DNA of 64,000 bases from a virus. The stretch is from IMG/VR virus record IMGVR_UViG_3300042894_007649, positions 1-64,000 of that record; one strand, 5' to 3'. The notes beneath the pieces were generated by a model. That model was not told where the DNA came from. It saw only the letters and a program-made list of their open reading frames with translations, and did no database searches. This document shows positions 1-47,600 of this stretch, piece by piece. The stretch's first letter is position 1. Every line of letters begins with the position of its first letter. A program made the position numbers and the translations under genes.

Positions 1-171
1 ATCGAATGGCAGTTTGAAATAGCCAAGACAATTGGATTCTTTGGTCTTGGCTACTGGTCTTGGCAAGCTTATCACAATTGGCTTTTTACTTTGTTCTGCT
101 GTCTAATGGGTTCCGCAATTGTTTCGATAGCCTATAGGCTATCAGAAAGGAATGAAAATGTACGAGATTAG
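1..171 (+). CDS. 5'-truncated small membrane protein
   Basis: Frame 1 is open from the window edge to TAG at 169-171; hydrophobic (IGFFGLGYWSWQ..WLFTLFCCLMGSAIVSIAY). Confidence 0.5.
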   Translation: MEWQFEIAKTIGFFGLGYWSWQAYHNWLFTLFCCLMGSAIVSIAYRLSERNENVRD

Positions 172-376
172 CTTCTCAAATGGAGACAAACCAGCATTTT
201 ACACGAACTATGAAGAAGCATGTGGAGTTCTACAAGAAATTTACGGAGAAGACATCGTAATTGGTCACGATGGCGACCTAGAAAATGGAGGAGATAGAAC
301 ACTAGTCTGGGAAAATGAAAAAGATTCGGAAAATGACGATGGTAAGAATGCTATAGCATCTATAAGCAAAGTATAA
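152..376 (+). CDS. hypothetical acidic early protein
   Basis: ORF with AAGGA SD (start 152 or 158), followed by a terminator. Confidence 0.75.
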   Translation: MKMYEISFSNGDKPAFYTNYEEACGVLQEIYGEDIVIGHDGDLENGGDRTLVWENEKDSENDDGKNAIASISKV

Positions 377-391
377 TCTAATAAATTCTAT

Positions 392-434
392 AACGGGGCT
401 ATCTGATTAAATCATCAGATAGCCCCGTTTTTTT
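392..434 (+). terminator. intrinsic terminator
   Basis: AACGGGGCTATCTGAT-loop-ATCAGATAGCCCCGTT plus T-run. Confidence 0.85.
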
Positions 435-502
435 GTTATAACTTCGTTCGTGCTTCAACGATTAGAGGTTAGTGATCATTTAACCAACAGAAGGAGTCAG
501 AA

Positions 503-1048
503 ATGCTTGCAAATCAAGATGTGCGCCAGCGTGTCGATGCTGGTAAGAAACAAGAATGCCTGATAATTCAAGCCCTAAACAGGGCTGGAATGAATCTGTC
601 CAACCCAACCAACTCTGAAGACCTTCTTGAGAAGGTTGACGCTTGGGGCCAACATAATGGCCAAAGAATGGGCATCCAGATTAAATTCAGGGAAACAGGC
701 AAAGATTTGTTGTTTGAAGTCTTTGATACTTTCTTTGGTTTTAACAACCCAAAGAACAAGATAGGCAGAGATATGAAGGGAACTGCCTCCCACTACGCTG
801 TAAAGTTCGACAAAAACATAGTTCTTGTCGAAAAGAAACAGGCCGAAGAAGTAATTCAAGAAATGCTCGACGAGGCCCGATGCAATGGATGGTCTGAAAG
901 GAATCAATCTAGCCAGACCTTGTATTACGAGTCAAACAATCATGAGCTTCAACTTAAACTTCAAAACGACCCAGCAGACGGGCGTAAAAAGATTGTTGCC
1001 TACATTCCTAAAGAATTCTTCAGTAACTGCAAATCATATGCAGCATAA
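503..1048 (+). CDS. putative PD-(D/E)XK-fold nuclease-like protein
   Basis: AAGGAG SD; pattern G..QE.....EKVDAW.....GIQIKFR resembles the E/D/(Q)xK nuclease core. Confidence 0.5.
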   Translation: MLANQDVRQRVDAGKKQECLIIQALNRAGMNLSNPTNSEDLLEKVDAWGQHNGQRMGIQIKFRETGKDLLFEVFDTFFGFNNPKNKIGRDMKGTASHYAVKFDKNIVLVEKKQAEEVIQEMLDEARCNGWSERNQSSQTLYYESNNHELQLKLQNDPADGRKKIVAYIPKEFFSNCKSYAA

Positions 1049-1060
1049 GGAGTTATATCA

Positions 1061-1426
1061 ATGGAATTTGATAGTAATCAAGAGATAGCAAACGCATACG
1101 GATTGCCGTATATGTTTCAAGAAGCTGAAGACTATGTAATGGAGGAACCTGACGTTTCGCTTAAGCGGATCGTTGGGATGAATAAAGTGGTATCTAGGTG
1201 GATAGAACGCCATCGACGCATACCAAGCAGTAACCCTAATGCCCAACCAGAAGAAAGGAAGATGGGTATATGGTTAAAGGTACTGATGTTCTATTCAGAC
1301 GTTATGGTAGACCCAACAGATGAAAACAAGAAAGAACGGGAGGAAAACGAAACATGCCATAAGTCATGTCAATTCACTATAAGATCAGGGTGCTATCCAG
1401 ATTCAAAAGATGAAGAATTTAACTGA
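1061..1426 (+). CDS. hypothetical protein (helicase-associated-domain-like motif)
   Basis: AAGGAG SD; WIERHRRIPS...EERKMGIWL. Confidence 0.55.
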   Translation: MEFDSNQEIANAYGLPYMFQEAEDYVMEEPDVSLKRIVGMNKVVSRWIERHRRIPSSNPNAQPEERKMGIWLKVLMFYSDVMVDPTDENKKEREENETCHKSCQFTIRSGCYPDSKDEEFN

Positions 1427-1447
1427 GTCCCAACCAAGGAGAATAAG

Positions 1448-1672
1448 ATGAACAATCGTGATCGATACTATGAATTCGTTGTACGAAGGCCTTTTGGAAC
1501 AGTTGAGAATATATTCAAAAAGGATTCAACCTTCAAAGCAATTGTTCGACCTCTGGTTAAAGACCTGAAAGAATACTTCGCTATCCAGCCAGAAGGCGAA
1601 ACTGATTTCACAGTCATCCCTTGTGTCAATATCAAGTTCAAAGAAGAAGAAGCCGAAGTGAATGACATCTGA
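1448..1672 (+). CDS. hypothetical protein
   Basis: AAGGAG SD, operonic. Confidence 0.75.
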   Translation: MNNRDRYYEFVVRRPFGTVENIFKKDSTFKAIVRPLVKDLKEYFAIQPEGETDFTVIPCVNIKFKEEEAEVNDI

Positions 1673-1687
1673 TTAAAGGAGAATCAT

Positions 1688-1873
1688 ATGCCAAAGATAA
1701 CAGTTTGGTTCGACGATATATCGCAAGATAAAGGATTTATCGTCGATATAGTGGAAAAAGACAACTGCATTACACTAAACGTCTTCAATGACATGATCGA
1801 TGCCATAAATTGGGCAAAACAATATGCCAATAAACGTAATATAAAATTTGAAGACCTTACGCAGTCTTGGTAA
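1688..1873 (+). CDS. hypothetical protein
   Basis: AAGGAG SD, operonic. Confidence 0.7.
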   Translation: MPKITVWFDDISQDKGFIVDIVEKDNCITLNVFNDMIDAINWAKQYANKRNIKFEDLTQSW

Positions 1874-2024
1874 TTTGGTAAAGAATTATCAGAAAATACT
1901 TTGCCCTGATAATGCTTTTGAGAAAACCATGATCGTTGTAAGAAAATCAGTAGGAAAAACAGTATAATCAAGGATGTAGACGACAAGCATATTGTCGTCT
2001 ACATCCCCCAAAGGAATAAGTGTC

Positions 2025-2120
2025 ATGGAAAGATACTTCATAATGCTAATGATAGTCTTCACGTTTATCCTTTTTTTTAAGGATACGATGAAAGCATCTT
2101 CTTACCTGAATAACAATTAG
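2025..2120 (+). CDS. 31-aa hydrophobic peptide
   Basis: AAGGA SD; MERYFIMLMIVFTFILFFKD...; preceded by TATAAT and hairpin GATGTAGACGACAA/TTGTCGTCTACATC. Confidence 0.45.
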   Translation: MERYFIMLMIVFTFILFFKDTMKASSYLNNN

Positions 2121-2130
2121 GAGCAAAGCC

Positions 2131-2529
2131 ATGAGAAGCATGATGCTTTTGGCCTTGTTCACAACAGGTTGTGCGAGTTGCTGCAAGAGAGTGGAGATAA
2201 TTGAGGTTTATGTACCAGAAAGACTCCCACATATCATCAAGCAACTCCCAGATCCTGATCTGTATGATGAGCAGAACAAGCCATATCACTTTACTCCTCC
2301 CATCATCCTCGAACCATTCAGACCAACAATCCAATCTCCTGAACCATTGCCATTCAGGAATACAACACCAATCGAACCAGCACCAAGATCAACCATGAAC
2401 ACCGAACAGAAAGATCGGTTCACGGTTACATCAAAAAAGGTTGAGACTATTCTCAAAGTATGTCTCACAGAGAACGGACCTAACTACGGTCCACCAAATA
2501 TATATTGTGAAATAAACTGGAAGTGGTAA
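2131..2529 (+). CDS. putative Pro-rich lipoprotein
   Basis: AGGAG SD; MRSMMLLALFTTGC lipobox-like N-terminus; terminator at 2551-2584. Confidence 0.6.
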   Translation: MRSMMLLALFTTGCASCCKRVEIIEVYVPERLPHIIKQLPDPDLYDEQNKPYHFTPPIILEPFRPTIQSPEPLPFRNTTPIEPAPRSTMNTEQKDRFTVTSKKVETILKVCLTENGPNYGPPNIYCEINWKW

Positions 2530-2638
2530 TATAACACAATATAAAAACATAAAATATCCTGCCAATATGGCAGGATATTTTTTTACTTATAACTTCGTGC
2601 GCTTCCTAGCGATTAGTAATTGTACCAAGGAGGTTGAA

Positions 2639-2839
2639 ATGAATAACTTGAATGTGCGAATGAAGGCCCATGTGACATTCATTTGGAACAACAACGAAAC
2701 CCTAACCCTTGCTGCTGATGAAACAGCAAGGGATAAGGTCATGGAATTGAAAATAAAGATTGATGCTTGGGGACAACCAAGAATCATGACGGGTGTATCA
2801 TGCAGCGTCGAATCAAGAAACACTTCAAGAAACACTTAA
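2639..2839 (+). CDS. hypothetical protein
   Basis: Start reassigned to ATG 2639 after AGGAGG and the promoter at 2589. Confidence 0.7.
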   Translation: MNNLNVRMKAHVTFIWNNNETLTLAADETARDKVMELKIKIDAWGQPRIMTGVSCSVESRNTSRNT

Positions 2840-2850
2840 GGAGCAATTCA

Positions 2851-3099
2851 ATGCAACCAGTCATTTTTCTACAAGGCGACGAAGCATATGATATCATCGA
2901 TCTTGACGATAAAGATCGTGATATCATGATCAAAACCTTGATGGAGTACCTACCAGATGTACTACCAGAACCCGAAAATATAAAACCCGAAAACCTAAAC
3001 TATAGAATTGTCTTCACTCATAGTGAAGGTGATAGAAAGTATACAATTGGATACACGACAGGCGATGGTGGATGTGTTGGTGTCTATTTGGCAAAATAA
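2851..3099 (+). CDS. hypothetical protein
   Basis: Start reassigned to 2851 after AAGGAG. Confidence 0.7.
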   Translation: MQPVIFLQGDEAYDIIDLDDKDRDIMIKTLMEYLPDVLPEPENIKPENLNYRIVFTHSEGDRKYTIGYTTGDGGCVGVYLAK

Positions 3100-3173
3100 A
3101 TTGCCTATAACATCGTTCAGCCGTGAACGATAAGAAAGTGTAAGGGTTTTGATCCAACCAACAGGAGAGAAAG

Positions 3174-3440
3174 ATGCCTATATTCGTGACAATGACCGAC
3201 AAATTTATGTCGGGATGGGGTGAAGCGGAAGGAAAAATAAACAAGTACGTTATTGAGTGTTCTTGCCATCAAGAGGCCCAAATCTGCGCTAAAAACGCTC
3301 GCTTAAGAAGCGAGATGAAATATGTCAACATCGTTTCAAAGAAGCCTTACTACAATCAAGAAAGGTATCTGGTTTCACTTAAAAAGTTTTCAGAACTTGG
3401 TTCTATATGGACACAAGACCCAGACAACAAAGGAGATTGA
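3174..3440 (+). CDS. hypothetical phage protein
   Basis: AGGAG SD after promoter 3107; MTDKFMSGWG motif. Confidence 0.8.
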   Translation: MPIFVTMTDKFMSGWGEAEGKINKYVIECSCHQEAQICAKNARLRSEMKYVNIVSKKPYYNQERYLVSLKKFSELGSIWTQDPDNKGD

Positions 3441-3441
3441 T

Positions 3442-3615
3442 ATGAACCGCTCAGAATTCATACATATATCCGAAATAATAGATGCTTTAAATAAGCATAA
3501 AATTGTTTTAAAGTCAATACTGTACGATTTGGACTTTTCAGAAAAATATTATGATGCCTTAAGAAACGAAATGGATCGTATGATAGCGAGAAGAGAGTAC
3601 ACGATAGAAGATTGA
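3442..3615 (+). CDS. hypothetical protein
   Basis: Start reassigned to 3442 after AAGGAG. Confidence 0.65.
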   Translation: MNRSEFIHISEIIDALNKHKIVLKSILYDLDFSEKYYDALRNEMDRMIARREYTIED

Positions 3616-3639
3616 CAAACACCACTTAAGGAGATTGAT

Positions 3640-3945
3640 ATGAAAGAGTACTACGAGTTTGAAACTACGCCTTCTGAAGAACCTTGTCAGCAACTTGGTC
3701 CAAAGTACGACCAAGACCTAGCAAGAAAGGAAGCAAGGCGAACTATTGATCAGATCGTTCGCCAATTTGGTGAACCACCAGAAGGATCAAGGTTCAGCAT
3801 AACAAGCAGTCCACACGAATTCGGAAGCTACTATAGCATCCGATTCAAGTATGACGACAATAATGAAGAACACTATAAGTATCTAACCAATGTAGACGAA
3901 AACTGGCCCAAAGAATATGATAATCAAGAATGCTCAACAACGTAG
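3640..3945 (+). CDS. hypothetical protein, paralog of 4067..4399
   Basis: AAGGAG SD; shares TP.EEP..LGP.YD...A...ARRT.DQI.R..G.PPEGS with the next gene. Confidence 0.8.
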   Translation: MKEYYEFETTPSEEPCQQLGPKYDQDLARKEARRTIDQIVRQFGEPPEGSRFSITSSPHEFGSYYSIRFKYDDNNEEHYKYLTNVDENWPKEYDNQECSTT

Positions 3946-3952
3946 AGTATTC

Positions 3953-4009
3953 AAAAAGCCTCGTAGAATATTCCACAAGACATGTGGATTATTCTACGAG
4001 GCTTTTTTT
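3953..4009 (+). terminator. long hairpin terminator, duplicated at 4408-4463
   Basis: GCCTCGTAGAATATTCCACA-AGACA-TGTGGATTATTCTACGAGGC plus T-run; near-identical copy after the paralog. Confidence 0.8.
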
Positions 4010-4066
4010 ATCTTAACATATCATTATGCTAGTAGTAATTGTAATTAACCACAAGGAGTAATTAAG

Positions 4067-4399
4067 ATGATCTGGACACCATTCCATCTGGTTGAATCGT
4101 GTGACTTCGATATAACACCAAGAAAAGAACCTATACATGATAAACTTGGTCCAAATTATGACCTAAATGCTGCCATGGCAGATGCAAGACGCACACTCGA
4201 TCAAATCCTGAGAGTCTCCGGTCAACCTCCAGAAGGATCGCTCCTTCGTATCGATGAGACCCTTCGTATCGATGAGACATTGGAACCACATATTTTAATA
4301 TGTCTTACAATAAGATTTACATTTAACAAAGAATCAAAAGAACACTCAGATTATCTAGTCAAAATTTTTGATAACTTTCCTGAAAAATACGATTCATAG
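4067..4399 (+). CDS. hypothetical protein, paralog of 3640..3945
   Basis: AAGGAG SD; internal in-frame duplication LRIDET-LRIDET. Confidence 0.75.
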   Translation: MIWTPFHLVESCDFDITPRKEPIHDKLGPNYDLNAAMADARRTLDQILRVSGQPPEGSLLRIDETLRIDETLEPHILICLTIRFTFNKESKEHSDYLVKIFDNFPEKYDS

Positions 4400-4577
4400 T
4401 ATTCAACAAGCCTCGTAGAGTATTCCACAAGACATGTGGAGTATTCTACGAGGCTTTTTTTTTATAAACAGATATAACAATAATTAAGAAAACACACATG
4501 AATTGCCTATAACTTCGTACTGGACTCTACGATAAGAAAGTGTGGCGAGAACGATTGTTGTTTCAAGGAGTCTGAAA

Positions 4578-5033
4578 GTGAACATCATTTCTAAAGAGTT
4601 CGTTGTTGCTGGCAAGTCAACCTTCACGCTGGCACTGCCAGAAGCTTACGCAACAGAGAACGGCCTAAAGCCGCACTACACATTCAAAGTGCGGTTTAAA
4701 GAAGGCCAGAATGGATTCAATGACACGTTCTTCGTGTCACTGCTCACTGGCCCAGACAACAACAGCAGTTACACTTATCTGGGCATACTAAACCCAGATA
4801 ACGGGCAGATCAGGACTACTGCAAAGTCCTGCCTGAATGGCGAAAGCCTTCAGGTGAAACTAATCAACCGTGCTTTGAAACTGGTCTGGGAAAACAATAC
4901 CCAGCCCCTGATCGATAAGGGCTTCGCTCTCCACCATGAGGGCAAATGTGGTCGATGTGGAAGGAAGTTAACGGTTCCTCTCTCGATTGAGACTGGAATC
5001 GGGCCAGAGTGTGCCAGTAGAATGGCTGCGTGA
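4578..5033 (+). CDS. DUF6011-like zinc-finger protein
   Basis: GTG start after AAGGAG; C-terminal CGRCGRKLTVPLSIETGIGPECA; terminator at 5041-5078. Confidence 0.8.
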   Translation: MNIISKEFVVAGKSTFTLALPEAYATENGLKPHYTFKVRFKEGQNGFNDTFFVSLLTGPDNNSSYTYLGILNPDNGQIRTTAKSCLNGESLQVKLINRALKLVWENNTQPLIDKGFALHHEGKCGRCGRKLTVPLSIETGIGPECASRMAA

Positions 5034-5099
5034 TCAGCCAATCCCCCTTGCCAAACAAAGGCAAGGGGGATTTTTTTATGTCAAAATTAATTTGATATA

Positions 5100-5465
5100 C
5101 TAAGATACCTCTTCAACAACACCTGATAAATGAATTTCTTTTGGTACAGGTTTCCATACAACAAGTTTATTAGCCATGAATGGTTTACCTCCAGCTTTTC
5201 TGTTTACTGCGATTGTTATATGCTTTTTACTATTGACGCTTGGCACTTCTGTTTGCACACCAACTGCCATAACCTTGTCATCGACAGCAACAGAATTAAC
5301 AAACAAGTCAACTTCTTGGCCAAGATATTCTTGTGCAGGACCACTGCTTGATGAACCAATGTTTATTGTCATGTGATGACATATTAATTCCCAATCAGGT
5401 GGCAAAGGGAATTCATTTATCAATTGTGACCTGCTGTTCTCGTCCAACACAATCGCTGTATACAT
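5100..5465 (-). CDS. 2H phosphoesterase (RNA-repair type)
   Basis: Two HxT motifs: HHMTINIG and KHITIAVN. Confidence 0.75.
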   Translation of the reverse strand: MYTAIVLDENSRSQLINEFPLPPDWELICHHMTINIGSSSSGPAQEYLGQEVDLFVNSVAVDDKVMAVGVQTEVPSVNSKKHITIAVNRKAGGKPFMANKLVVWKPVPKEIHLSGVVEEVS

Positions 5466-5566
5466 TTTAAATAAACCTCAGTAATATATAAATAAAATTT
5501 AATTGCTAAACCAACAACCTTCATGATAGCATTGAACCAGCATAAGGCAAAACAGGAGAAAAACTC

Positions 5567-5716
5567 ATGTTCAAAGTTCTAGACTGCCAATATAATCGTG
5601 ATCACCATCCAAACATAGTTGGATATATACTAGAACTCAAAGAAATACCAATAGACTGCATAGTAATGTACAACTCAGGATACAAAAAACTCGTAGAATA
5701 CTCAACAAGCATGTAG
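5567..5716 (+). CDS. 49-aa hypothetical protein ending inside a tandem repeat
   Basis: AGGAG SD; MFKVLDCQYNRDHHPNIVG...YSTSM*. Confidence 0.5.
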   Translation: MFKVLDCQYNRDHHPNIVGYILELKEIPIDCIVMYNSGYKKLVEYSTSM

Positions 5717-5810
5717 AATACTCCACAAGACCGTAGAATACTCAACAAGCATGTAGAATACTCAACAAGCATGTAGAATACTCCACAAGACCGTAGAATA
5801 CTCCACAAGC
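5691..5810. repeat. 6 x 20-bp tandem repeat NNGTAGAATACTC(A/C)ACAAG(C/A)
   Basis: Six contiguous 20-mers directly visible; same motif as the arms of the 3953 and 4408 hairpins. Confidence 0.95.
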
Positions 5811-6056
5811 ATATATGATATTACACAAAAACATATGAAGCTAAACAAATATATCAAAATATAAAAGTCTATATCACAATATAATGTGTTGTTGAAGTAC
5901 AAGACTTCAATAATTTTTCAAGTCTTGTACTTTACGATTAACTCTTAAAGTCTTGTACTTTACGAACATCCTAATCCAGCATAGAATGATTTGCTTATAA
6001 CTTCGTTCGTCTTCGTGCGATTAGAAGGTGTACCTATAACCAACAGGAGTGTTAAC

Positions 6057-6350
6057 ATGCCATCCTTTGTGCGTGAGTATGACGAAGTGAAACTTGAAAA
6101 CAACCTTTACGGCGTGAAGGTTGAAGGCGAGTACTGGGTATCCAGTTTCGAGCGTCAGCAGGGCGACTATGAGTCGTCCTGCTTCGGAGAGGTAGACATT
6201 GAGGTAGAAGGCCAAATCGTTGAGATCATCGATCTCAACGACGAAGAACGCAAAATTGAGGGACAGGAATTCCTGTCCCTCACAGAAAAACTAAAACATC
6301 TAATTGATATCGAAGACGACCAAATCAACTGGGAAAAACTGGAAGGATGA
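6057..6350 (+). CDS. acidic hypothetical protein
   Basis: Start reassigned to 6057 after AGGAG and promoter 5997; terminator at 6360-6397. Confidence 0.75.
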   Translation: MPSFVREYDEVKLENNLYGVKVEGEYWVSSFERQQGDYESSCFGEVDIEVEGQIVEIIDLNDEERKIEGQEFLSLTEKLKHLIDIEDDQINWEKLEG

Positions 6351-6546
6351 TGTGAAACAAAAAGATAGCAGGACTAAACATCCTGCTATCTTTTTTTATT
6401 TTAAGGTTCTCATTATAGTACAAGACTTGAAGAATTCTTTTATTCCTCTGCTTCACAAATAACCTGCTTATAAATTACTTATAAGTTCGTTCATCCTTGT
6501 GCGATAGGCAAGTGTGGCAATTACTATTGACTGAAAGGTGAAAACC

Positions 6547-6972
6547 ATGAACGCAGCAAACGAAAATAGCATCATCGACTTATCCAAAAACAGCAGTATC
6601 CGAGAAAGAATCCGAGAACAAGAAGAAATAAACAGGAAAGACAATGAGAAGAGACGGCAAACGGAACGGATCATCGTCCGTGCCATTTTGACCAAAGCAA
6701 AGAGGGAGGGCTATGCCATAGCCCTCGATAACGGGGAGGAGATCATAAAGCTGTCTCCCCTAAAAACTGTGAAGGCAATGATTGAAGAATGCTTCAGCGT
6801 CGATGACGAAGCATTGCTGTTAGAAAAAGACGGCAAAAAAGGTTGGGTTCGACTTGTGTACGGAAACACAGGTTTTGATGTCATATGTGATTACTCACCG
6901 AGACTCGATGACTTCCTAGACACAATTCTAGAGAAGTCTCTGTATCACGAAAGGAAATACTTTAATGACTGA
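6547..6972 (+). CDS. hypothetical phage protein
   Basis: After promoter 6481; GWVRLVYGN.G.DVICDYS motif; start 6538 or 6547. Confidence 0.8.
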   Translation: MNAANENSIIDLSKNSSIRERIREQEEINRKDNEKRRQTERIIVRAILTKAKREGYAIALDNGEEIIKLSPLKTVKAMIEECFSVDDEALLLEKDGKKGWVRLVYGNTGFDVICDYSPRLDDFLDTILEKSLYHERKYFND

Positions 6973-7132
6973 TGTTAGACAGGAAGTAAAGTGGGAAGTA
7001 CAAGGTGTTATATTCTGGACAAGATATAACATCTTGATAGATTGGGATCAAGATACCGCTGAGACATTTCCAAAATGGCTCAGAAGCAATCTAGAGTCCA
7101 TTAACGTGGACTGCTCATATCTAGATGTGTGA
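6965..7132 (+). CDS. 55-aa ORF overlapping serial hairpins (CDS or structured RNA)
   Basis: AAGGA SD, overlaps the previous stop; followed by a 19-bp-stem terminator at 7141-7194. Confidence 0.45.
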   Translation: MTDVRQEVKWEVQGVIFWTRYNILIDWDQDTAETFPKWLRSNLESINVDCSYLDV

Positions 7133-7494
7133 ACAAACACATATTGATATAGCATACTATCTTCTGTGTAGTATGCTATATCAATATTTTTTTTGTTTTA
7201 TTTTTCTGTGTAGTACAAGACTTTAAAAATTCTTCAAGTCTTGTACTATAAAATAAATTTTAAAGTCTTGTACTATAAAAACAACTCTTCAAGTCTTGTA
7301 CTATAAGTACATCCTAAATAAGTAAAACAAAATAAAACTTATAACCTCGGTCGGCCTTGTGCGATAGGTAAGTGTAGGGAGGACGACCCTACACGACCGA
7401 AGTTCAAATAATTGCTTATAACTTCGGTCGGCCCTGTACGATAGGTAAGTGTAAGGGGGCGATTGATCCACCTTACTTCATTGGAGTCTGCGCC

Positions 7495-7695
7495 ATGTTG
7501 ACCAAGAAAACGATTCTTGTTTCCCTCACTGGTGGCCGCAAGGCCACCGTAAAAGCCCTTTCAAAGGGCGATCTTTGGGATGTGCTCCGTACCCACGGGT
7601 ACGAGCCACGGGAAATCAAGGGATATAAAGTTTTATCCCACGAAATTGTGGATTCGTGGACCAAGCCTTCGGCTTGGTTCCACATAGCAGAATAA
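7495..7695 (+). CDS. cassette ORF, hypothetical
   Basis: GGAG SD after promoter and hairpin; followed by terminator. Confidence 0.8.
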   Translation: MLTKKTILVSLTGGRKATVKALSKGDLWDVLRTHGYEPREIKGYKVLSHEIVDSWTKPSAWFHIAE

Positions 7696-7698
7696 AAC

Positions 7699-7908
7699 AA
7701 AAAGATAGCAGGACTAAACATCCTGCTATCTTTTTTTATTTTAAGGTTTTCATTATAGTACAAGACTTGAAGAATTCTTCAAGTCTTGTACTATAGGTAC
7801 ATCCTAAACAAGTAAAACAAAATAAAACTTATAGCTTCGGTCGTCCCTGTACGATAGGTAACTGTAGGGAGGACGATTGATCCCCCCTACTTCATTGGAG
7901 TTTGCGTT
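7699..7908 (+). repeat. ~210-bp intergenic module (terminator-palindrome-A-rich tract-promoter-hairpin-SD)
   Basis: Near-identical copies at ~8286-8490, 8726-8987 and 9250-9428; partial copies at 6360-6440, 7210-7494, 9757-9926 and 10067-10147. Confidence 0.95.
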
Positions 7909-8277
7909 ATGAAGACTGCCTTCCTTGCCAAGGACCTTCACAATCTCCCTGATATCCAGATGGCACTTTCTGATGCCCTGAAAAGTGGCCACGATGAGCT
8001 ATGGCTCACGGGCCACTTTCAGTGGCTCTTTGAGGACCACCCCAGCAGCCAGTGGGTCGGGCGATCTGGCCCAACTTTTAGTGTCAAATTTAATTTAGCC
8101 ACGAATTCGTGGCTAACTGGTGATGGTAAACGCATCATCAGGACCGCATCAGCTACCACTCAGGCGGTGGCTGAGTTGATCCAGATGTCTGCTATAAAAA
8201 ATGATAGCAGAATTGTCATACCCATCAGCTTCAGTGTTGGCGACACTGAAGATTATAGCGAAGGCGATGATGATTAA
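7909..8277 (+). CDS. cassette ORF, hypothetical
   Basis: Lies between two modules, with SD. Confidence 0.8.
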   Translation: MKTAFLAKDLHNLPDIQMALSDALKSGHDELWLTGHFQWLFEDHPSSQWVGRSGPTFSVKFNLATNSWLTGDGKRIIRTASATTQAVAELIQMSAIKNDSRIVIPISFSVGDTEDYSEGDDD

Positions 8278-8490
8278 ACATAAGAGATAGCAGGATGTAA
8301 CATCCTGCTATCTTTTTTTATTTTAAGGTTTTCATTATAGTACAAGACTTGAAGAATTCTTCAAGTCTTGTACTATAAGCACATCACAAACAAGTAAAAC
8401 AAAATAAAACTTATAGCTTCGGTCGGCCTTGTACGATAGGTAAGTGTAGGGGGGGCGAGTGATCCACCCTACTTAATTGGAGTTTGCGCT

Positions 8491-8718
8491 ATGGCAAATG
8501 TTAGTGCCCTCATCCGCATGGGGGCCGATAAGGCTCTCGTGTCATCCGTCATGGGACGTGAGTCCCGATGCGTGACGGGGTCAATTAAAGGGTCACCCGT
8601 GCGGGTGATCCTGCGTTTTGGTCAGGCCACACATATAATGGGCAGCGATGCCTGTTTATGTGATGCGGTCAAGGCCGCAATTGGCAACCCAAGAACGGAA
8701 ATCAGGCTAGTGGCCTGA
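8491..8718 (+). CDS. cassette ORF, hypothetical
   Basis: Lies between two modules, with SD; GC-rich relative to flanks. Confidence 0.8.
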   Translation: MANVSALIRMGADKALVSSVMGRESRCVTGSIKGSPVRVILRFGQATHIMGSDACLCDAVKAAIGNPRTEIRLVA

Positions 8719-8987
8719 TTCCCTTAGATAGCAGGATGTTACATCCTGCTATCTTTTTTTATTTTAAGGTTTTCATTATAGTACAAGACTTGAAGAATTA
8801 TTCAAGTCTTGTACTATACAAAAATTCTTCAAGTCTTGTACTATAAAAACAATTCTTCAAGTCTTGTACTATAGGTACATCCTAAATAAGTAAAACAAAA
8901 TAAAACTTATAACTTCGGTCGGCCCTGTACGATAGGTAAGTGTAAGGGGGACGAGTGATCCACCTTACAACACAGGAGGCTGCGACA

Positions 8988-9161
8988 ATGGCTGATTCAG
9001 ATTGGTCCGTGCGGGACGAAAAGTCACTCCAACTGGAGGCTAAGGCCCTCCTGCTAGAGCAGGAGGCCCTCTGGAAGTACGGGGGAAACCCCAAAAACTT
9101 CCCGCAGGACGTGCGGGAAGCCATCAACGCAGCATGGGCTGCGTACGAGGCCTCCCTGTAA
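8988..9161 (+). CDS. cassette ORF, hypothetical
   Basis: Start reassigned to 8988 after AGGAGG. Confidence 0.75.
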   Translation: MADSDWSVRDEKSLQLEAKALLLEQEALWKYGGNPKNFPQDVREAINAAWAAYEASL

Positions 9162-9428
9162 ATTGTGATAGAGTGAGATAGAGGGAGATATCTCCCTCTA
9201 TCTTCTTTTTAACTTTGATATCACAAGATATTTAAATATATCTTGTGATATCTTTTTTTATTTTAAGGTTCTTATTATAGTACAAGACTTGAAAAATTCT
9301 TCAAGTCTTGTACTATAAGCACATCCTAAATAAGTAAAACAAAATAAAACTTATAGCTTCGGTCGGCCTTGTACGATAGGTAAGTGTAGGGGGGACGAGT
9401 GATCCCTCCACTTAACAGGAGATGCGAC

Positions 9429-9737
9429 ATGAAAAATTTCATCAATCTTACCCCACACACCATTAACCTGACCAATGGGGCCGCTTATGCGGCCTCTGGT
9501 CAGGTCGCAAGGGTGTCAAGCACCCACACACCATTCGATGCGGATGGTGTGGCGAGCATTCAATGGGGGGAGGTGACAGGCCTCCCCGCCCCACAAGATG
9601 GGGTGATCTACATTGTCAGTGCCTTGGTAGCGCAAGCTGCCAAGAGATCGGATGTAGTATCTCCTGCAACTGGGCACCCCGCATGTGTGCGGGAAAATGG
9701 ACAGATACAATCTGTCCCCGGATTCGTCCGTTCATAA
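9429..9737 (+). CDS. cassette ORF, NLTPH-motif phage protein
   Basis: Start reassigned to 9429; INLTPHTI...GLPAPQDGVIYIVS.LV motif. Confidence 0.8.
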   Translation: MKNFINLTPHTINLTNGAAYAASGQVARVSSTHTPFDADGVASIQWGEVTGLPAPQDGVIYIVSALVAQAAKRSDVVSPATGHPACVRENGQIQSVPGFVRS

Positions 9738-9926
9738 AAAGCAACTAGATAGCAGGACATTATGTCCTGCTATCTTTTTTTATACCTGTTATTCTTCAAG
9801 TCTTGTACTATAAGTACATCCTAAATAAGTAAAACAAAATAAAACTTATAGCTTCGTTCGGCTCACTACGATAGGTAAATGTAGGGGGGACAAGTGATCC
9901 CCCCTACTTCAATGGAGGATGCGAAA

Positions 9927-10043
9927 ATGATTGCTATCATTATGTTGATCGGTATAGGTTGGTACTCTGGCTGGCGTATAATAAAGGAAGATTGGTCATG
10001 GCAATCTATATCTAGCACCGTTGATATCAATGAACGGTACTGA
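9927..10043 (+). CDS. cassette ORF, 38-aa membrane peptide
   Basis: GGAGG SD; MIAIIMLIGIGWYSGW... Confidence 0.6.
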   Translation: MIAIIMLIGIGWYSGWRIIKEDWSWQSISSTVDINERY

Positions 10044-10147
10044 TAAGAAAATATCAGTACCAATTACTTATAACCTCGGTCGTCGCTGTACGATAGGTAA
10101 CTGTAGGGGGGACGAGTGATCCCCCCTACTTAAAAGGAGTATGCGCT

Positions 10148-10240
10148 ATGAACATTAATGATTGGCTTCTGATTCTGACGGTAGTGCTTTCAGTTGGCGT
10201 CTCAATCGAGACTCTTGGTATCTGGTGGCACGGTAACTAA
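10148..10240 (+). CDS. cassette ORF, 30-aa membrane peptide
   Basis: AAGGAG SD; MNINDWLLILTVVLSVGVSIETLGIWWHGN. Confidence 0.6.
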   Translation: MNINDWLLILTVVLSVGVSIETLGIWWHGN

Positions 10241-10259
10241 CTATAAGGAAGGAGCTATC

Positions 10260-10445
10260 ATGAAGATCAATGTTGATATTGAAACAGTAATGTCTGCTAT
10301 CGAAGATGGCGACATGATAGGATTCTGTATAGCTTGTGGGGAGGAAGCATCTGGTTGCGAGCCAGATGCTCGCAAGTATACCTGTGAGTCATGCGGAGCT
10401 AAGAAAGTGTACGGTGCGGAAGAGATACTTATGATGATTGCATAA
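10260..10445 (+). CDS. zinc-ribbon protein
   Basis: Start reassigned to 10260; CIACG...CEPDA...CESCG; terminator at 10453-10483. Confidence 0.8.
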   Translation: MKINVDIETVMSAIEDGDMIGFCIACGEEASGCEPDARKYTCESCGAKKVYGAEEILMMIA

Positions 10446-10477
10446 AGATATATAGCCATCCTTTCGGGGATGGCTAT

Positions 10478-10890
10478 TTTTTTATGTCTATATAAAATAG
10501 ATATAAAAATATATCAAAAGATATTATTTAAAAAATATTTTTACAAAGATATAAATTAAAAAATTATTATTGAAAAAGATAAAAAAGTATAGCTACCCCC
10601 CCCTGCCGTCCCCTGCTATGACGGTCGCCTTTTTATTTAACTGTTACTTTTTTATTTTTACAGGGATTGATTGCATTGAATTTTAACTTTTTGCAAAAAT
10701 TTCTTCTGGACAATTTTGGATATATGCGAGAAAAGTTTGGAATCTTATAATTAGTGGATTTTAAAAAAAGTGGCGGGTGAAAAATCTGATTTGGTGGGTT
10801 TACATTTTAATTATTATTTGCCATATTTGTAAAAAATTTAGTTTTATTTAATTGATAATATATAAAAATATCTGATTGATTAAGAGGAAT
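10478..10890. other. AT-rich non-coding region at skew inversion (candidate replication origin or genome junction)
   Basis: ~110-bp very AT-rich tract, then a C-rich island; the + strand changes from A/C-rich to G/T-rich regardless of gene strand (judged by eye). Confidence 0.45.
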
Positions 10891-10892
10891 TT

Positions 10893-11582
10893 ATGTTAAC
10901 ATTTTTTGAATATGTTATGAATAGAGATTTTTATGAATCTGTAGATCCAGACGATGCTCAGAGGCGTTTTGAGTGTGATAGGAATTTGCAGGATTTATTT
11001 TTATGGTATTCTGGCAATTTGGGTAAGAAGGGAGAGTTTTATGAGAGATTGGACAAGAATATAAGAGATTGTTTTAGTAATAGTCTTTTGTTATATCAGC
11101 GTAGAATGGTTAGAAGAAACATTGTTGATGAAGAGGACGTTATCAACAGGACATTGATGAGGGTTCATGATACGGTTGAAGAAAAAATAAGAAATAGAAA
11201 ATTGAATTACAACACAATTGGTGGTTTGATTACAACAATGATTAGAGCATCTGTTGTGGACATTATGAGGCGTAATAATTTGAAGAGGGAGAAAGGGAAT
11301 GTGCGTTTTAGCACAGTTGGTACTGTTCATGAGCCGAGGTCATTAGCTGGAGATCCATCGTTTGAAAAGATAGGATTAGAGGATGCTTTAAGTGTTCCGA
11401 GTTTGAGTCCGAGGCAGAAGATTATTTTGACTCGCAGGTCTGAGGGTGCAAAGAATCAAGATATTGCTAAAGAATTGAATATCAGGCCTCCTTATACAAC
11501 GATGCTTTACAATGATGCGAAGGATAAGATTAAAAAGCATTATGGTATAGGTTCTTATTCCTCAGGTTTTTCAGAAGATTAA
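10893..11582 (+). CDS. sigma70-family (ECF/group 3-like) sigma factor
   Basis: Region 2-like EEDVIN..L.RV...LITTMIRASVVDIMRR and region 4 HTH LSPRQKIIL..RSEG..NQDIAKELNI. Confidence 0.75.
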   Translation: MLTFFEYVMNRDFYESVDPDDAQRRFECDRNLQDLFLWYSGNLGKKGEFYERLDKNIRDCFSNSLLLYQRRMVRRNIVDEEDVINRTLMRVHDTVEEKIRNRKLNYNTIGGLITTMIRASVVDIMRRNNLKREKGNVRFSTVGTVHEPRSLAGDPSFEKIGLEDALSVPSLSPRQKIILTRRSEGAKNQDIAKELNIRPPYTTMLYNDAKDKIKKHYGIGSYSSGFSED

Positions 11583-44696: not shown

Positions 44697-47600
44697 ATGG
44701 ATCAACCCATATTAGACAATCTTAATCGTAATGTTGGAAGCGTTATAACAAGCCTTCAAGCATTAAAAAGTGCATTAGATACTGCTTCTACTGGCACAGC
44801 ACAACCTGCTGGCGGTGGAAACGTAAACATGGATGACTTAAAAGACATACTAGGAAAATTCGTCAAAGATTTTAAAGAAGTATCAGAAGAGCAAAAAAAA
44901 TATACAAAATCTGTCGTCAAAGCAATGAAAGATGTTATAAAAGCTCGTAGCAGTGGCGGCGGTGGCGGCGGTGGTGGCGGTGGTGGTGGTGGTGGTGGTG
45001 GTGGTGGTGGTGGTGGTGGTAAAAAATCCAAAGCAGACCAAGAAGAAATTAAAAATCTTCAAAGTAAATTGAGCTTAGAATCTCAACTTATCGATTTTGC
45101 TGAAAAAAATAGTTTTTATGGTGAAAATAGTGTCGATACTTTAACTGAAGCATTAAAAATAACTGTTGCTCAACATAAAGTAAGAGCCAATGCTTTAGTC
45201 AGCATACAAGGAATTAGTGACGTTGAAAAACAAGCATTGAAAACAGAATATAAGCGTTTAGAAGCTATTAAGAATGGCCAATATGCTTATTATAACATGG
45301 TTAACCAGTTAAGAGAAATTACTGGTTACATGAATACATTTGAAAGTGGCCTTGGTCTAAAAACCATGGAAACACTGACAAGCGGAATTGTTCAAGAGGA
45401 AATGAAATTTACTCAAGAAGTTCGCAAAGCAGCTTATGAAACAGCAGGACTAACCAAAAATAGTCAATCTCTTCAAAGAACATATGAAGAAATTGGCACT
45501 TCTGTTAAAACAACTGGCTTTGATAGAACTAAATTTCAACAATCTTATTTAAAATCTTTAAAGAGTGGTGTTAAAGATTTAAAGCAAGCTGTATCATTAA
45601 CAACAACTCAACTTAACACTGAAAGCCAATTGGGTCTTGAAGCAGGATCATTACAAGAAACATTCCAATCATTTGCCCAAACAGGAAGAATGACTAATGG
45701 TCAACTTGCTGATATGGGTCGTGGTATGCGTGATGTAGCTAAAAATACTGGATTAACAGGCGAAGCATTAAAAGGAGCAGTTGATTCAAGTCGTGAAATA
45801 ATTAATCAACTCAGAAATGCAGCAAGCCTAACAAGCACTGCTGCTAAAAATGTTATAGAAATGAATGCAAATGCCAAAAAACTTGGTGTTGATCAACAGA
45901 TGTTGCAATTGCAAGGTGGATTGACAAGCGGCGCTAAATTACTGATGGACTCATCTTCACAAACTCAGTCAATGATATTTTTAGCAGCAAGTAAAGTTGG
46001 AAAAGTAAACGAAGCAATGAACGGAACTCTTCTTTCAACAAAAGAAGGAATTAAATCTCTTGGCACTGGATTGCAAGGAATTCTTAAAGATTTCGGTGTC
46101 GGAAGCCTTGAAGAAATTGATCAACTGTCAGCAGAAGCAAAAACAAGATTAAATATTCAACTAAAATCCGTCGTTGGAATGGAATTAGGAGAGTTCCGTT
46201 CTTTGATAGAATCTGTAAATGAATCAGGAAAAGGTCTTGGAGACAGACTTGGCGATATCAATAAGAAAATGAAAGATAATATAACCGCTGATGAAAAAAG
46301 AGCTTTAGTTGAACAAAAGCGCCAGTTGAAAGCTAGCAAGCAACTTGAAATATTGACAGCACTAGATGAAGCAGCAAAAGGCGCAAAAGATATGAATGGT
46401 GCCTTAGCTAAATTTGGCGAAAGAAGAAAAGATTTTGAAGGCGATTTACAAGCATTAGGATCAAGCTGGCAGAATGAAACACAAGTTGCTAAAGATGCAA
46501 TCAAGGGAGCAATTGAAAGCGTTAACAAAGGGCTGAAAGAGGCTGGTAAATCAGAACTTAAAATAGATTCTTCAGAAATAGAAAAGGCTGTTAAAGACCC
46601 ATCTATGTTAAGGGAATTGACTGCTAAAATAAGCAAGGGTGAACAACAATTAGCCACTGCACAGAAAGCACAACTTGATCCTGTAACAGAGACAAATCAA
46701 AAACTAACTGAAATAAATGACACTCTAAGAAATATGTCTCAAAATGTTATATCAAAAATAATGAGCAGCATTTTTGGAAAGTTATTGGTTGTTGGAGCAG
46801 TAATTTCTGGAATTGCAGCTTCAGTTATTGGTCTTGGAATTCAATTAATTGCGATTAAGAAGACATTGCAAAAAATTGCCTTTGGAGATATGAGCAAAGG
46901 AGAATCTGAACTAAGTCTTTTAGATAACCTAAAATCTGTTTTCACTAGCAAAAAACCAATTGAAGGCGTTAATATTGGTAAAACAGAAACGGAAAAACTA
47001 ACAGGTCAAACATCTCCAACTAGTACTGTTACATCAGAAGCGCAAAAGAAAACAAAAGCAGAAACGCAACCGCAAACTCAAACTGTTGCACCTAAACCAG
47101 AATCAGTAAACGTAGAAGAAAAAATAAGCAAGTCATCAGAAATTCTTACAAAAATTTTAACTACTTTAGATACAATTAAAGATTGTATTTGTAAACCTTC
47201 TACACCATTGACTCAACCACCAGCAGCAGCACCTGATCCAATGGCTGCATTGACACAAGCAAAACCAGCAGCAGCACCTGATCCAATGGCTGCATTGACA
47301 CAAGCAAAACCAGCAGAGCCAGAACCTGTGCAAGTTGCTGAAAAAGCTGCTGGAAAAGCAGCTAAAAAGAAAAAGCTAACTCCAGAAGAAATTGCAGCAC
47401 TTAAAGCTGAAGGTCAGGCAAGAAAAGAAGCCGCCAAAGCTAAAGGACTTGATCCAGCAGTTGAAAAATCCATCAGAAGAAATCAAGAAAAGAATATAAA
47501 GATGGATACGAAATTAAACAATATAGAGAGAAAAGAACAAATAAAAGAAATAAGAAGAGGCAAAAAAGACGATAGAATATTAAGATTAGAAGAGCAAGCT

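Follow-up and report, generated by a model that had tools for sequence, protein, structure and literature searches.

A probable array of mobile early-gene cassettes in a freshwater phage known from metagenomic DNA

Organization of the array

The DNA considered here is IMG/VR record IMGVR_UViG_3300042894_007649, which comes from an uncultured freshwater phage. Positions refer to the window, that is, the stretch of 64,000 nucleotides from 1 to 64,000 of the record; the whole contig of 81,623 bp (81.6 kb) is a virus fragment with a CheckV completeness of about 19%. Direct reading and a repeat search of positions 5887-10480 revealed nine joints of one grammar, which separate small, unrelated open reading frames (ORFs), and this array of cassettes is the subject of the present report. 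The parts of a joint follow one another in the order terminator, ATTTTAAGGTT, half-sites of a palindrome, A-rich tract, bipartite promoter, G/C hairpin and the translation start GGAG-N-TGCG-N2-3-ATG, in which 7-9 nt separate GGAG from the ATG. The joints measure 190-360 bp, and their segments are 61-100% identical, with identical stretches of 45-98 bp. The ORFs between them encode 30-141 amino acid residues and have no mutual similarity in an all-against-all BLASTP comparison. Their G+C content at third codon positions (GC3) is 39-72%, and at least 50% in seven of the eleven, while the value for the rest of the contig is 15-33%.

The terminator GATAGCAGGA-loop-TCCTGCTATC plus T7 is present in five copies (6364, 7704, 8286, 8727, 9748), and further terminators are located at 7141-7194, 9175-9204 and 9217-9259. 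The RNA folds of the terminators range from -20 to -43 kcal/mol with z from -8.8 to -10.4, and several of them have A-tracts upstream and score on both strands. Terminator-like sites are enriched in the 12 kb scanned (37 vs 8.4 expected). The element ATTTTAAGGTT has five copies. The 18-bp half-site TTCAAGTCTTGTACTATA occurs 19 times, 12 times direct and 7 times inverted; all copies lie in 5893-9812, and there are zero elsewhere in the 81.6-kb contig. An inverted half-site followed by a direct one makes up the 42-bp palindrome. Two of its copies, 7754-7795 and 8336-8377, are perfect; those at 8777-8818 and 9276-9317 each contain a single mismatched pair, and those at 5893-5934 and 7209-7250 are degenerate. 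Single arms are found at 6414-6431 (left) and 9795-9812 (right), and both joints concerned are cut off at the dyad centre. The A-rich tract CATCCTAAATAAGTAAAACAAAATAAAA has six copies, and AAGTAAAACAAAATAAAA precedes the -35 box in six joints. The 5' hairpin GTAGGGGGG..CCCCCCTAC (GGGGGG..CCCCCC) has seven copies with energies of -10 to -20 kcal/mol. In 12 copies of this hairpin from two genomes, 82% of the cells pair, compared with 52-66% when the partners are slid, and two of the pairs carry compensatory changes from G-C to A-U. A search of Rfam gave no match reaching the gathering score, all hits being generic hairpins.

The joints, M0 to M8, and the cassettes, c0 to c9, are all on the plus strand. 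Joint M0 (5893-6056) contains the degenerate palindrome, an extra direct half-site (5945-5962), a promoter (5994-6030) and a Shine-Dalgarno sequence (SD), and is without the 5' hairpin. It is followed by c0 (6057-6350, 97 residues), which has no family match. Joint M1 (6359-6546) consists of a terminator (6359-6397), the single left arm and a promoter (6478-6514); its homology with the other joints stops at the dyad centre. Cassettes c1a (6547-6972, 141 residues, PHROG 4158) and c1b (6965-7132, 55 residues) share the next segment (6547-7132) with a start/stop overlap. Joint M2 (7141-7494) opens with the terminator at 7141-7194, followed by an inverted half-site and three direct ones (7209-7305) and by an A-rich tract. 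Next come an empty unit (7338-7414) with a promoter (7338-7374), a short hairpin and no ORF, and then a second promoter (7415-7451), a 5' hairpin (7451-7476) and an SD. Cassette c2 (7495-7695) encodes 66 residues with a GC3 of 55%.

Joint M3 (7699-7908) contains a terminator (7699-7737), the perfect palindrome 7754-7795, an A-rich tract, a promoter (7828-7863), a hairpin (7864-7890) and an SD, and leads into c3 (7909-8277, 122 residues), an ORFan whose sole relatives are 87-94% identical. Joint M4 (8282-8490), with a terminator (8282-8319), the second perfect palindrome, a promoter (8410-8445), a hairpin (8446-8472) and an SD, precedes c4 (8491-8718, 75 residues, GC3 58%). Joint M5 (8726-8987) adds to its terminator (8726-8760) and palindrome (8777-8818) two more direct half-sites (8828-8873), followed by a promoter (8906-8941), a hairpin (8942-8968) and an SD; the cassette behind it is c5 (8988-9161, 57 residues, GC3 72%). 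Two terminators, 9175-9204 and 9217-9259, open joint M6 (9175-9428), followed by the palindrome 9276-9317, a promoter (9350-9385), a hairpin (9386-9411), an SD and cassette c6 (9429-9737, 102 residues), which encodes a predicted Crn4b-family ring nuclease. Joint M7 (9747-9926) has a terminator (9747-9781), the junction ATACCTGTTATTCTT, the single direct half-site 9795-9812, a promoter (9845-9880), a hairpin (9881-9907) and an SD. Cassette c7 (9927-10043) encodes a hydrophobic peptide of 38 residues, the start of which was placed by analogy with the GGAG-TGCG-ATG context. Joint M8 (10044-10147) is reduced to a promoter (10067-10102) and a hairpin (10103-10129), without T-run terminator or half-site. 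The last segment (10148-10483) comprises c8 (10148-10240), a membrane-like peptide of 30 residues, c9 (10260-10445), which is zinc-ribbon-like with a CxxC..CxxC pattern, and the terminator closing the array (10452-10483).

An earlier note on this DNA had described a module made of terminator, ATTTTAAGGTT, 42-bp palindrome, A-tract, promoter, hairpin and SD, and every element named there has been confirmed. The BLASTP comparison and the GC3 values likewise agree with its description of the ORFs as unrelated, small and GC-richer, and the side-by-side occurrence of complete, truncated and empty copies is borne out, the empty copy being 7338-7414. Two of its statements are to be modified. The array is present at 5890-10245 as proposed; however, the promoter type starts earlier, with transcription units from 437. 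The 42-bp palindrome, which was taken as a unit of the module, is present, but it is a pair of half-sites, and the number of half-sites in a joint varies from 0 to 4.

The region is probably a hyperplastic early-gene region of insulated, mostly single-gene transcription units. Across positions 1-10500 of the window GC3 is 28-72%, compared with 15-33% at 10501-81623, and the overall GC content is 40.5% vs 33.5%. Foreign origin could explain the high GC3 of the early region, as could tuning to host codon usage ahead of the appearance of phage functions. The contig encodes a gp6-like baseplate wedge (PHROG 219, 4e-27), and many of its proteins have T4-like N-terminal leaders; no capsid, portal or terminase gene was found in the 81.6-kb fragment, which is about 19% complete. 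No DNA similarity to deposited phages was detected among 50,697 phage records. The exact joint was not found in other IMG/VR genomes, where pattern scans with half-site, promoter and hairpin returned single chance matches or zero.

Comparison with related loci

A candidate sigma factor gene (10893-11582) starts 400 bp past the array. Metagenome locus scans with this sigma recovered one relative, L072, in which the sigma is 85% identical, and a sister clade, L073-L079, in which it is 76% identical. Single-sequence IMG/VR locus searches with the sigma, c6 and the c1a homologue P0177 gave no array relatives; locus L071 does have a gene of the c6 family, but its surroundings are unrelated. Homologues of c1a, c3 and the sigma are found on several other contigs: that of c1a is 94% identical (P0177, on a 25.5-kb contig), those of c3 are 94% identical (P0020/P0021), and those of the sigma found in metagenomes are 67-90% identical, the 90% value belonging to P0002. 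P0011, among the closest homologues, is on a 304-kb contig.

The L072 locus has a parallel array of the same grammar upstream of its sigma gene. Its 12 promoters, TATGTC-N16-CGAGTA, have the geometry of those in the window and different boxes. The L072 dyad GGAGTACAATGCCC..GGGCATTGTACTCC (GGAGTACAATGCCC-AAAAGAATCTTT-GGCCATTGTACTCC) differs from that of the window, and its half-sites are single, direct or inverted. The 5' hairpin of the window type is present in five units, two terminators are identical to window 9175-9259, and the junction ATACCTGTTATTCTT of joint M7 is common to both loci. In BLAST and pairwise alignments the blocks of homology, with 78-79% identity, begin just after the -10 box and extend through the hairpin and the ORF to the T-run of the terminator. 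The half-sites, the A-tract and the promoter occupy equivalent positions in the two loci, and their sequences are lineage-specific throughout.

The gene content and order of the two arrays differ. In the window c4 precedes c5, while in L072 the order is inverted: the c5 homologue (8007-8174, 68% identical in amino acids) comes before the c4 homologue (coding sequence ending at 8708, 77%). The L072 homologue of c1a (4580-4900) is located between homologues of the window ORFs 3322 and 3640. Cassettes c0, c3, c6, c7, c8 and c9 have no counterpart at the L072 locus, which has cassettes of its own. The promoter spacer of L072 contains a clear inverted repeat of 6-8 bp with the compensatory variant GTCCAACT/AGTTGGAC; a PeSL-like (promoter-early stem-loop) inverted repeat was sought in the promoter spacer of the window as well and rejected, being not above chance. 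At L072:3656-3720 a leader with GTAACGA four times in tandem (GTAACGAGTAACGAGTAACGAGTAACGA) comes straight after a promoter whose spacer has the compensated 8-bp inverted repeat GTCCAACT/AGTTGGAC.

The clearest event comes from the sister clade, where L079 and L078, with 99.85% identity over 17.9 kb, differ by the replacement of a cassette, an ORF of 226 residues in L079 corresponding to ORFs of 128 and 109 residues in L078. On the left the junction falls within a 57-bp upstream repeat, which goes from three copies to two, and on the right it falls within a terminator stem. The array unit of this clade consists of a terminator, one to three copies of the 57-bp repeat (GACAACACTAGGATACTAAAATGTGGATGGGAGGAATC..), a promoter TTGACC-N17-TAGAAT, a leader and a GC-rich ORF. 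The loci are L079:540-3300, L078:300-3200 and L076:1-4800, and their structured leaders of about 75 nt are without a clear SD.

The joints of the window itself are mosaic. The promoters of M4 and M6 are identical and their untranslated regions 76% alike; M5 is 97% identical to the first part of M2 (M2a) upstream of the promoter and 100% identical to the second part (M2b) in the promoter; and three terminators with a similarity of only 72-81% are followed, after the T-run, by 46 bases that match at 100%. This mosaic structure points to recombination or gene conversion among the copies. The earlier note had proposed a comparison of relatives for gain, loss and order of cassettes with breakpoints in the module, and the outcome it predicted was obtained in two lineages. 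Its description of a plug-in array of single-gene expression units, plastic in content and order, is supported by the comparisons with L072 and between L079 and L078. Shuffling of units at the joints is thus supported by the alignments. With lengths of 190-360 bp and identities of 61-100%, the joints are suitable substrates for ordinary homologous recombination, which is sufficient to account for the shuffling.

Promoter and adjacent sigma gene

The bipartite promoter TATAAS.TCG-N11-RCGATW, which has the form TATAAC-N16-CGATAGG in the array, occurs in 14 copies on the contig, all on the plus strand, all in 437-10100 and all before an SD-ATG. Four of them (437, 2588, 3106 and 4508, in the segment 435-4541) are located outside the array, each straight after a terminator, with no half-sites and no conserved joint. 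Compared with the array copies they keep just the -35 box, the -10 box and the 16-nt spacing, which argues for a selected bipartite promoter and not for a recent duplicate. Sites similar to sigma70 promoters are not enriched in the region (29 vs 34.5 expected). Putative sigma70 promoters inside the dyad (TTGAAG-N16-TACTAT) were considered and rejected, since they are neither conserved in L072 nor enriched.

Promoters of group-4, or extracytoplasmic function (ECF), sigma factors have a characteristic look, with AAC in the -35 box and CG in the -10 box at a spacing of 16-17 nt. The promoter of the window fits this pattern, having AAC in the -35, CG in the -10 and a spacing of 16 nt; the L072 promoter TATGTC-N16-CGAGTA is without the AAC. 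The candidate cognate sigma factor (10893-11582, plus strand) has 229 residues and a putative two-domain, ECF-like organization. It matches PHROG 1740, 'RNA polymerase sigma factor' (1.9e-7), and its residues 170-198 match the region-4 helix-turn-helix of Sigma70_r4_2/GerE; a Joint Genome Institute (JGI) homologue is named 'sigma24 family'. Almost all the top Foldseek rows for its AlphaFold2 (AF2) model, which has a mean predicted local distance difference test (pLDDT) score of 63, are ECF or sigma28-type sigma factors, with a best E of 0.015. No further sigma domains were found in the contig. From these features we infer that an ECF-like phage sigma factor reads the array promoters. The motif TATTTATGTATGTTGATTTAATTTGTGTAGAGG, in the form TTATGTA-N16-GTAGAG, occurs in five copies in the sister clade, one of them before the sigma gene, and may be the sister-clade counterpart of the bipartite promoter.

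Palindrome and half-sites

The dyad symmetry is kept in both the window and the L072 lineages, although the inner bases have changed on both arms (GACTTG vs TGCCCA). A second dyad motif, the 14-bp GTRGARTAYTCYAC, forms seven tandem iteron-like copies with a 20-bp period at 5683-5822, just upstream of the first palindrome-bearing joint; in L072 (845-990) the period is 21 bp. Inverted pairs of GTRGARTAYTCYAC form the stems of terminators at 3958-3988 and 4409-4455, and single copies are found inside L072 joints between palindrome and promoter (2998, 4466, 6408, 6429, 6932). The motif looks like an operator, an iteron or a centromere-type site.

The most likely role of the 18-bp half-sites and the 42-bp dyad is to bind a protein, of the phage or of the host, by which the units are tuned or shut off; this is the weakest part of the model. 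The operator reading is drawn from the symmetry kept in both lineages, the variable copy number and the presence of the second dyad motif GTRGARTAYTCYAC. Some support for breakage at the dyad comes from the two joints that are cut at its centre. There is also a likeness within the joint: the core of the half-site, TGTACTATAGGTA (7772-7812), is identical at 12 of 13 positions to the -10 region of the promoter, TGTACGATAGGTA (7826-7880), a level reached in about 1 of 500 shuffles. The likeness is not seen in L072.

Cassette proteins

The cargo of the cassettes is accessory. The family of cassette c6 comprises 2,596 cluster representatives, and its profile matches Crn4b (PDB 9r7b, E 6.9e-12). The N-terminal NLTPH of c6 aligns with NLTPH of Crn4b, which holds the conserved Thr and the catalytic His of that family, and H10 is nearly invariant in the c6 family. 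A candidate for the C-terminal Arg of Crn4 is R88 in the fragment CVRENG; the reference residues in Crn4a are T13 and H15. The AF2 model of c6 has a pLDDT of 97.7. Foldseek superimposes it on 9r7b with template modelling (TM) scores of 0.81/0.73 and a probability of 1.0, and the seven best matches (E <= 0.001) are all Crn4 chains (9r7b, 9sma, 9qs9). On the basis of sequence and model, c6 is predicted to be a Crn4b-family ring nuclease that degrades cyclic oligoadenylates.

Crn4 is reported to degrade cyclic oligoadenylates, and its homologues have been noted in phages and plasmids, the phage-borne Crn4b homologues being proposed as anti-CRISPR and possibly as acting against the cyclic oligonucleotide-based antiphage signalling system (CBASS) (PMC12830947). 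By analogy, c6 is predicted to counter type III CRISPR and CBASS signalling. Searches of Pfam, PHROGs, PDB sequences and the ESM Atlas yielded no usable information on the functions of c0, c1a, c2-c5 and c7-c9. Of the anti-defence cargo suggested in the earlier note, the part that stands is c6; the other cassettes have no assignable function. However, since one ORF in eleven is a predicted ring nuclease of the Crn4b type and its neighbours share its expression context and an atypical GC3, these neighbours are reasonable candidates for counter-defence or host takeover.

Other features of the region

Two further genes lie in the early region upstream of the array. The ORF at 4542-5033 on the plus strand encodes a protein of 163 residues with a C-terminal DUF6011 (6.5e-14; PHROG 20259), and its unit has 82% DNA identity with L072:937-1524. 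The sole minus-strand gene of the region, at 5100-5465, encodes a 2H phosphoesterase of 121 residues with two H-x-T motifs (PF08302 tRNA_lig_CPD, 5e-6, above the cut-off) and is the best-conserved block with L072 (94% in nucleotides). No PDB sequence match was found for it; RNA repair is one candidate function, and cleavage of cyclic nucleotides by a phosphodiesterase of the Acb1 kind is another.

Elsewhere on the contig, CTAAATAAA sits 3-6 nt before the ATG of genes with the T4-like leader (M.FKQ[FW]L..E), where there is no Shine-Dalgarno sequence. The ORF starts concerned are 12078, 12490, 13097, 13955, 15275, 16883, 19087 and 22048 on the minus strand, and 22097, 23702 and 25094. The motif resembles the late promoter of T4 (TATAAATA), and such a placement would make the mRNAs leaderless or nearly so. 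At 44697-53972, on the plus strand upstream of the baseplate genes, there is an ORF of 3091 residues with a weak match (1.9e-4) to a tape-measure PHROG alone; it is very long for a tape measure. An N4-like interpretation, with this ORF as a virion RNA polymerase and the palindromes as hairpin promoters, was rejected because of the tape-measure match, weak as it is, and the baseplate neighbours.

Proposed mechanism and alternatives

The arrangement of the parts allows a mechanism to be proposed. The terminator would end the preceding unit, and the bipartite, non-sigma70 promoter would open the next one, being read by the host core RNA polymerase with the ECF-like sigma of the phage. With the -10 box at CGATAG, transcription would start at or beside the G of GTAGGG, which would place the G/C hairpin at the very 5' end of the mRNA. 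By analogy with known 5'-terminal stem-loops, this hairpin most likely shields the mRNA from 5'-end-dependent decay, and GGAG, located 7-9 nt upstream of the ATG, would drive translation. Unequal or inter-genome exchange between joints would delete, duplicate, reorder and import cassettes, while gene conversion would keep the joints alike inside one genome. The engine would be that of the PeSLs in T4-type phages, acting here on a module that is larger and wired in another way. We consider it likely that this model holds as a whole, that is, insulated early units with accessory cargo, a promoter served by the phage's own sigma, and PeSL-type recombination at the joints.

Several points weigh against the model. 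The start site, the sigma that reads the promoter and the timing class were all assigned from sequence. The assignment of the sigma is weak: it has no Pfam region-2 match and no PDB sequence match, the pLDDT of its AF2 model is 63, and its Foldseek matches have E values of at least 0.015. In the sister clade, L079 keeps a sigma gene 76% identical, yet its array promoters are sigma70-like (TTGACC-N17-TAGAAT), which weakens the link between the sigma and the array. The distance from half-site to promoter is fixed at 50 nt in the window and varies from 51 to 100 nt in L072, a variation that fits poorly with a phase-dependent activator, and the operator model gives no account of the likeness between the half-site core and the -10 region. 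In addition, L072, the single relative with the array type of the window that was compared, is fairly distant, and the shuffling it documents is that between lineages.

It was also considered whether the half-sites are a second class of promoters, for another sigma factor or a phage RNA polymerase. In that case the cassettes would have tandem promoters of two temporal classes, and transcription from the inverted copy would run into the bidirectional terminator upstream. The half-site and its flank, ATTCTTCAAGTCTTGTACTATAGG, are about 23 bp long and end in ACTATAG(G), which we take to be the initiation-proximal word of T7/SP6-type promoters. The 12/13 identity of the core to the -10 region, the copy number that varies like that of tandem promoters, and the terminators with upstream A-tracts that score on both strands would agree with this. 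However, the L072 counterpart ends in TCCAAG/TCTAAG without the TATA word, five units have the bipartite promoter alone, and reading of the sequence revealed no -35 partner at the right distance from the half-site; we judge such a promoter class to be unlikely. A T7-like RNA polymerase (PF00940) was not found in the fragment, in a search that is uninformative, since it matched no control genome either. The integron-like mechanism put forward in the earlier note differs in kind: the palindrome, or another part of the module, would be the attachment site of a recombinase encoded in the unsequenced 80% or so of the genome, with excision of circles and site-specific reinsertion. Two joints are indeed truncated exactly at the dyad centre (6414-6431 for the left arm and 9795-9812 for the right arm), the dyad symmetry has survived the change of inner bases in both lineages, the record is only about 19% complete, and 'homologous or site-specific recombination' was left open for PeSLs (PMC4122927). 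On the other hand, the absence of a visible recombinase, which the earlier note reported for the window, extends to the 81.6 kb of this partial record, in which no tyrosine or serine recombinase (PF00589, PF00239) was found. The cassettes are individually equipped with a promoter and a terminator. The half-site of the perfect dyad occurs also as one to three direct copies, unlike attC; the edges of the blocks shared with L072 are at the hairpin and the T-run and not at the dyad; and the length and similarity of the joints are sufficient for homologous exchange, with a mosaic that has the pattern of gene conversion. The integron-like mechanism is thus disfavoured, and we regard it as distinctly improbable.

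Two further explanations both appear very improbable. In one, short reads were mis-joined across the repeats and the order of the cassettes is not real. The metagenomic source and repeats of 190-360 bp with identical stretches of 45-98 bp make this conceivable, but the copies differ by 7-39%, which is enough for assembly, and all ORFs are intact and correctly set after SD-ATG. Independent assemblies from other samples have the same grammar and the same linkages of ORF and terminator (L072), and homologues of c1a, c3 and the sigma are present on several other contigs. In the other, one early unit was duplicated in tandem and its ORFs diverged, so that the joints, clearly related by duplication, would have no part in gene flux. 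Against this, the ORFs have no detectable similarity while the joints are up to 100% identical, the relatives differ by replacement and reordering, and the c6 family has 2,596 cluster representatives elsewhere.

The joint may do more than supply passive homology. The block of hairpin, ORF and terminator may be a portable unit circulating in a clade of freshwater jumbo-type phages and plugged behind the promoter and operator set of the recipient. A dedicated protein, such as a recombination-promoting or structure-specific nuclease or a packaged regulator, may act at the 42-bp dyad and the half-sites, and the whole anti-defence array may be fired at once on infection by a sigma factor delivered with the capsid. 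Taken together, these would make a phage-borne, self-regulating platform for gene capture, mechanistically unlike PeSLs and integrons; that all of this applies is unlikely.

Descriptions and tests of PeSL-type shuffling have been confined to T4-like coliphages and vibriophages, and here it is encountered in an uncultured freshwater phage clade, where the joint is far more elaborate and is wired to a non-sigma70 promoter. The comparison of two lineages splits this joint: the 5' hairpin, the ORF and the terminator travel with the gene, while the operator-like repeats and the promoter are homogenised in each genome. The split illustrates in concrete terms how genes for accessory and anti-defence functions can stay expressible as they move between phages. 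The joint is also a compact natural set of parts, comprising a terminator, an orthogonal promoter, a hairpin that would stabilise the mRNA, and a ribosome-binding site. The leads of most value are that the joint behaves as two parts, the dyad together with its resemblance to the -10 region, a possible connection with a delivered sigma, and the cassettes beside the ring nuclease.

Comparison with known systems

The array shares with integrons an ordered set of small, unrelated accessory genes, whose order and content vary among relatives, and a palindromic element between the genes. However, integron cassettes are promoterless and depend on one common promoter, whereas nine promoters and eight terminators are found inside the array of the window. 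The attC site is an imperfect palindrome at the 3' end of the cassette, while the dyad of the window is perfect, is located upstream of the promoter and is built from a reusable half-site that also forms direct repeats. Integrons have IntI; no integrase was found in the 81.6 kb of the fragment, and the breakpoints observed are not confined to the palindrome.

With ECF (group 4) systems the window has in common the AAC of the -35 box and the CG of the -10 box, 16 nt apart, and a small gene for a putative two-domain sigma beside its presumed regulon. It differs from them in that the sigma gene itself is not preceded by the bipartite promoter and that no anti-sigma gene is seen. The nearest known systems for c6 are Crn4b and viral ring nucleases such as AcrIII-1. 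Cassette c6 shares with Crn4b (9r7b) the Crn4 fold (TM 0.81), the N-terminal T-x-H motif and the length class. It differs in being 29% identical, phage-borne and placed in an early expression cassette; cA3, cA4 and cA6 are its candidate substrates.

PeSLs are the mobile regulatory cassettes of the T4-type phages RB49/phi1, PST/T4 and nt-1/KVP40. Their proposed mechanism is recombination between copies of a promoter/stem-loop/terminator motif that stand on either side of ORFans in hyperplastic regions (Arbiol et al. 2010, PMC2839356; Comeau et al. 2014, PMC4122927), and exchange between adjacent copies yields mini-circles. The comparison with PeSLs made in the earlier note is apt (PMC2839356, PMC4122927). 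Both systems have a repeated intergenic composite of promoter and stable stem-loop/terminator with an SD and start codon at its 3' edge, an AT-rich tract upstream of the -35 box and a poly-G/poly-C stem-loop, and in both the composite is concentrated before ORFans in a hyperplastic early region. In both, indels, replacements and reordering among relatives map to the motifs, and homologous recombination is the proposed engine. The differences concern the wiring. The PeSL promoter is of the host sigma70 consensus, whereas that of the window is of the ECF kind with an adjacent phage sigma gene; the sister clade has the sigma70-like TTGACC-N17-TAGAAT. The module of the window is 2-3 times longer, with a separate strong terminator, 0-4 half-sites with the 42-bp dyad, and a 5'-terminal hairpin. 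Unlike the PeSL case, the regulatory half of the joints is replaced wholesale between the window and L072 lineages, while the hairpin-ORF-terminator blocks persist. The carriers of PeSLs are T4-type phages; the window phage is known from an 81.6-kb fragment with a gp6-like baseplate wedge and T4-like leaders. Of the known systems the PeSL is nonetheless the closest in kind, and the array is a PeSL-like set of mobile regulatory cassettes.

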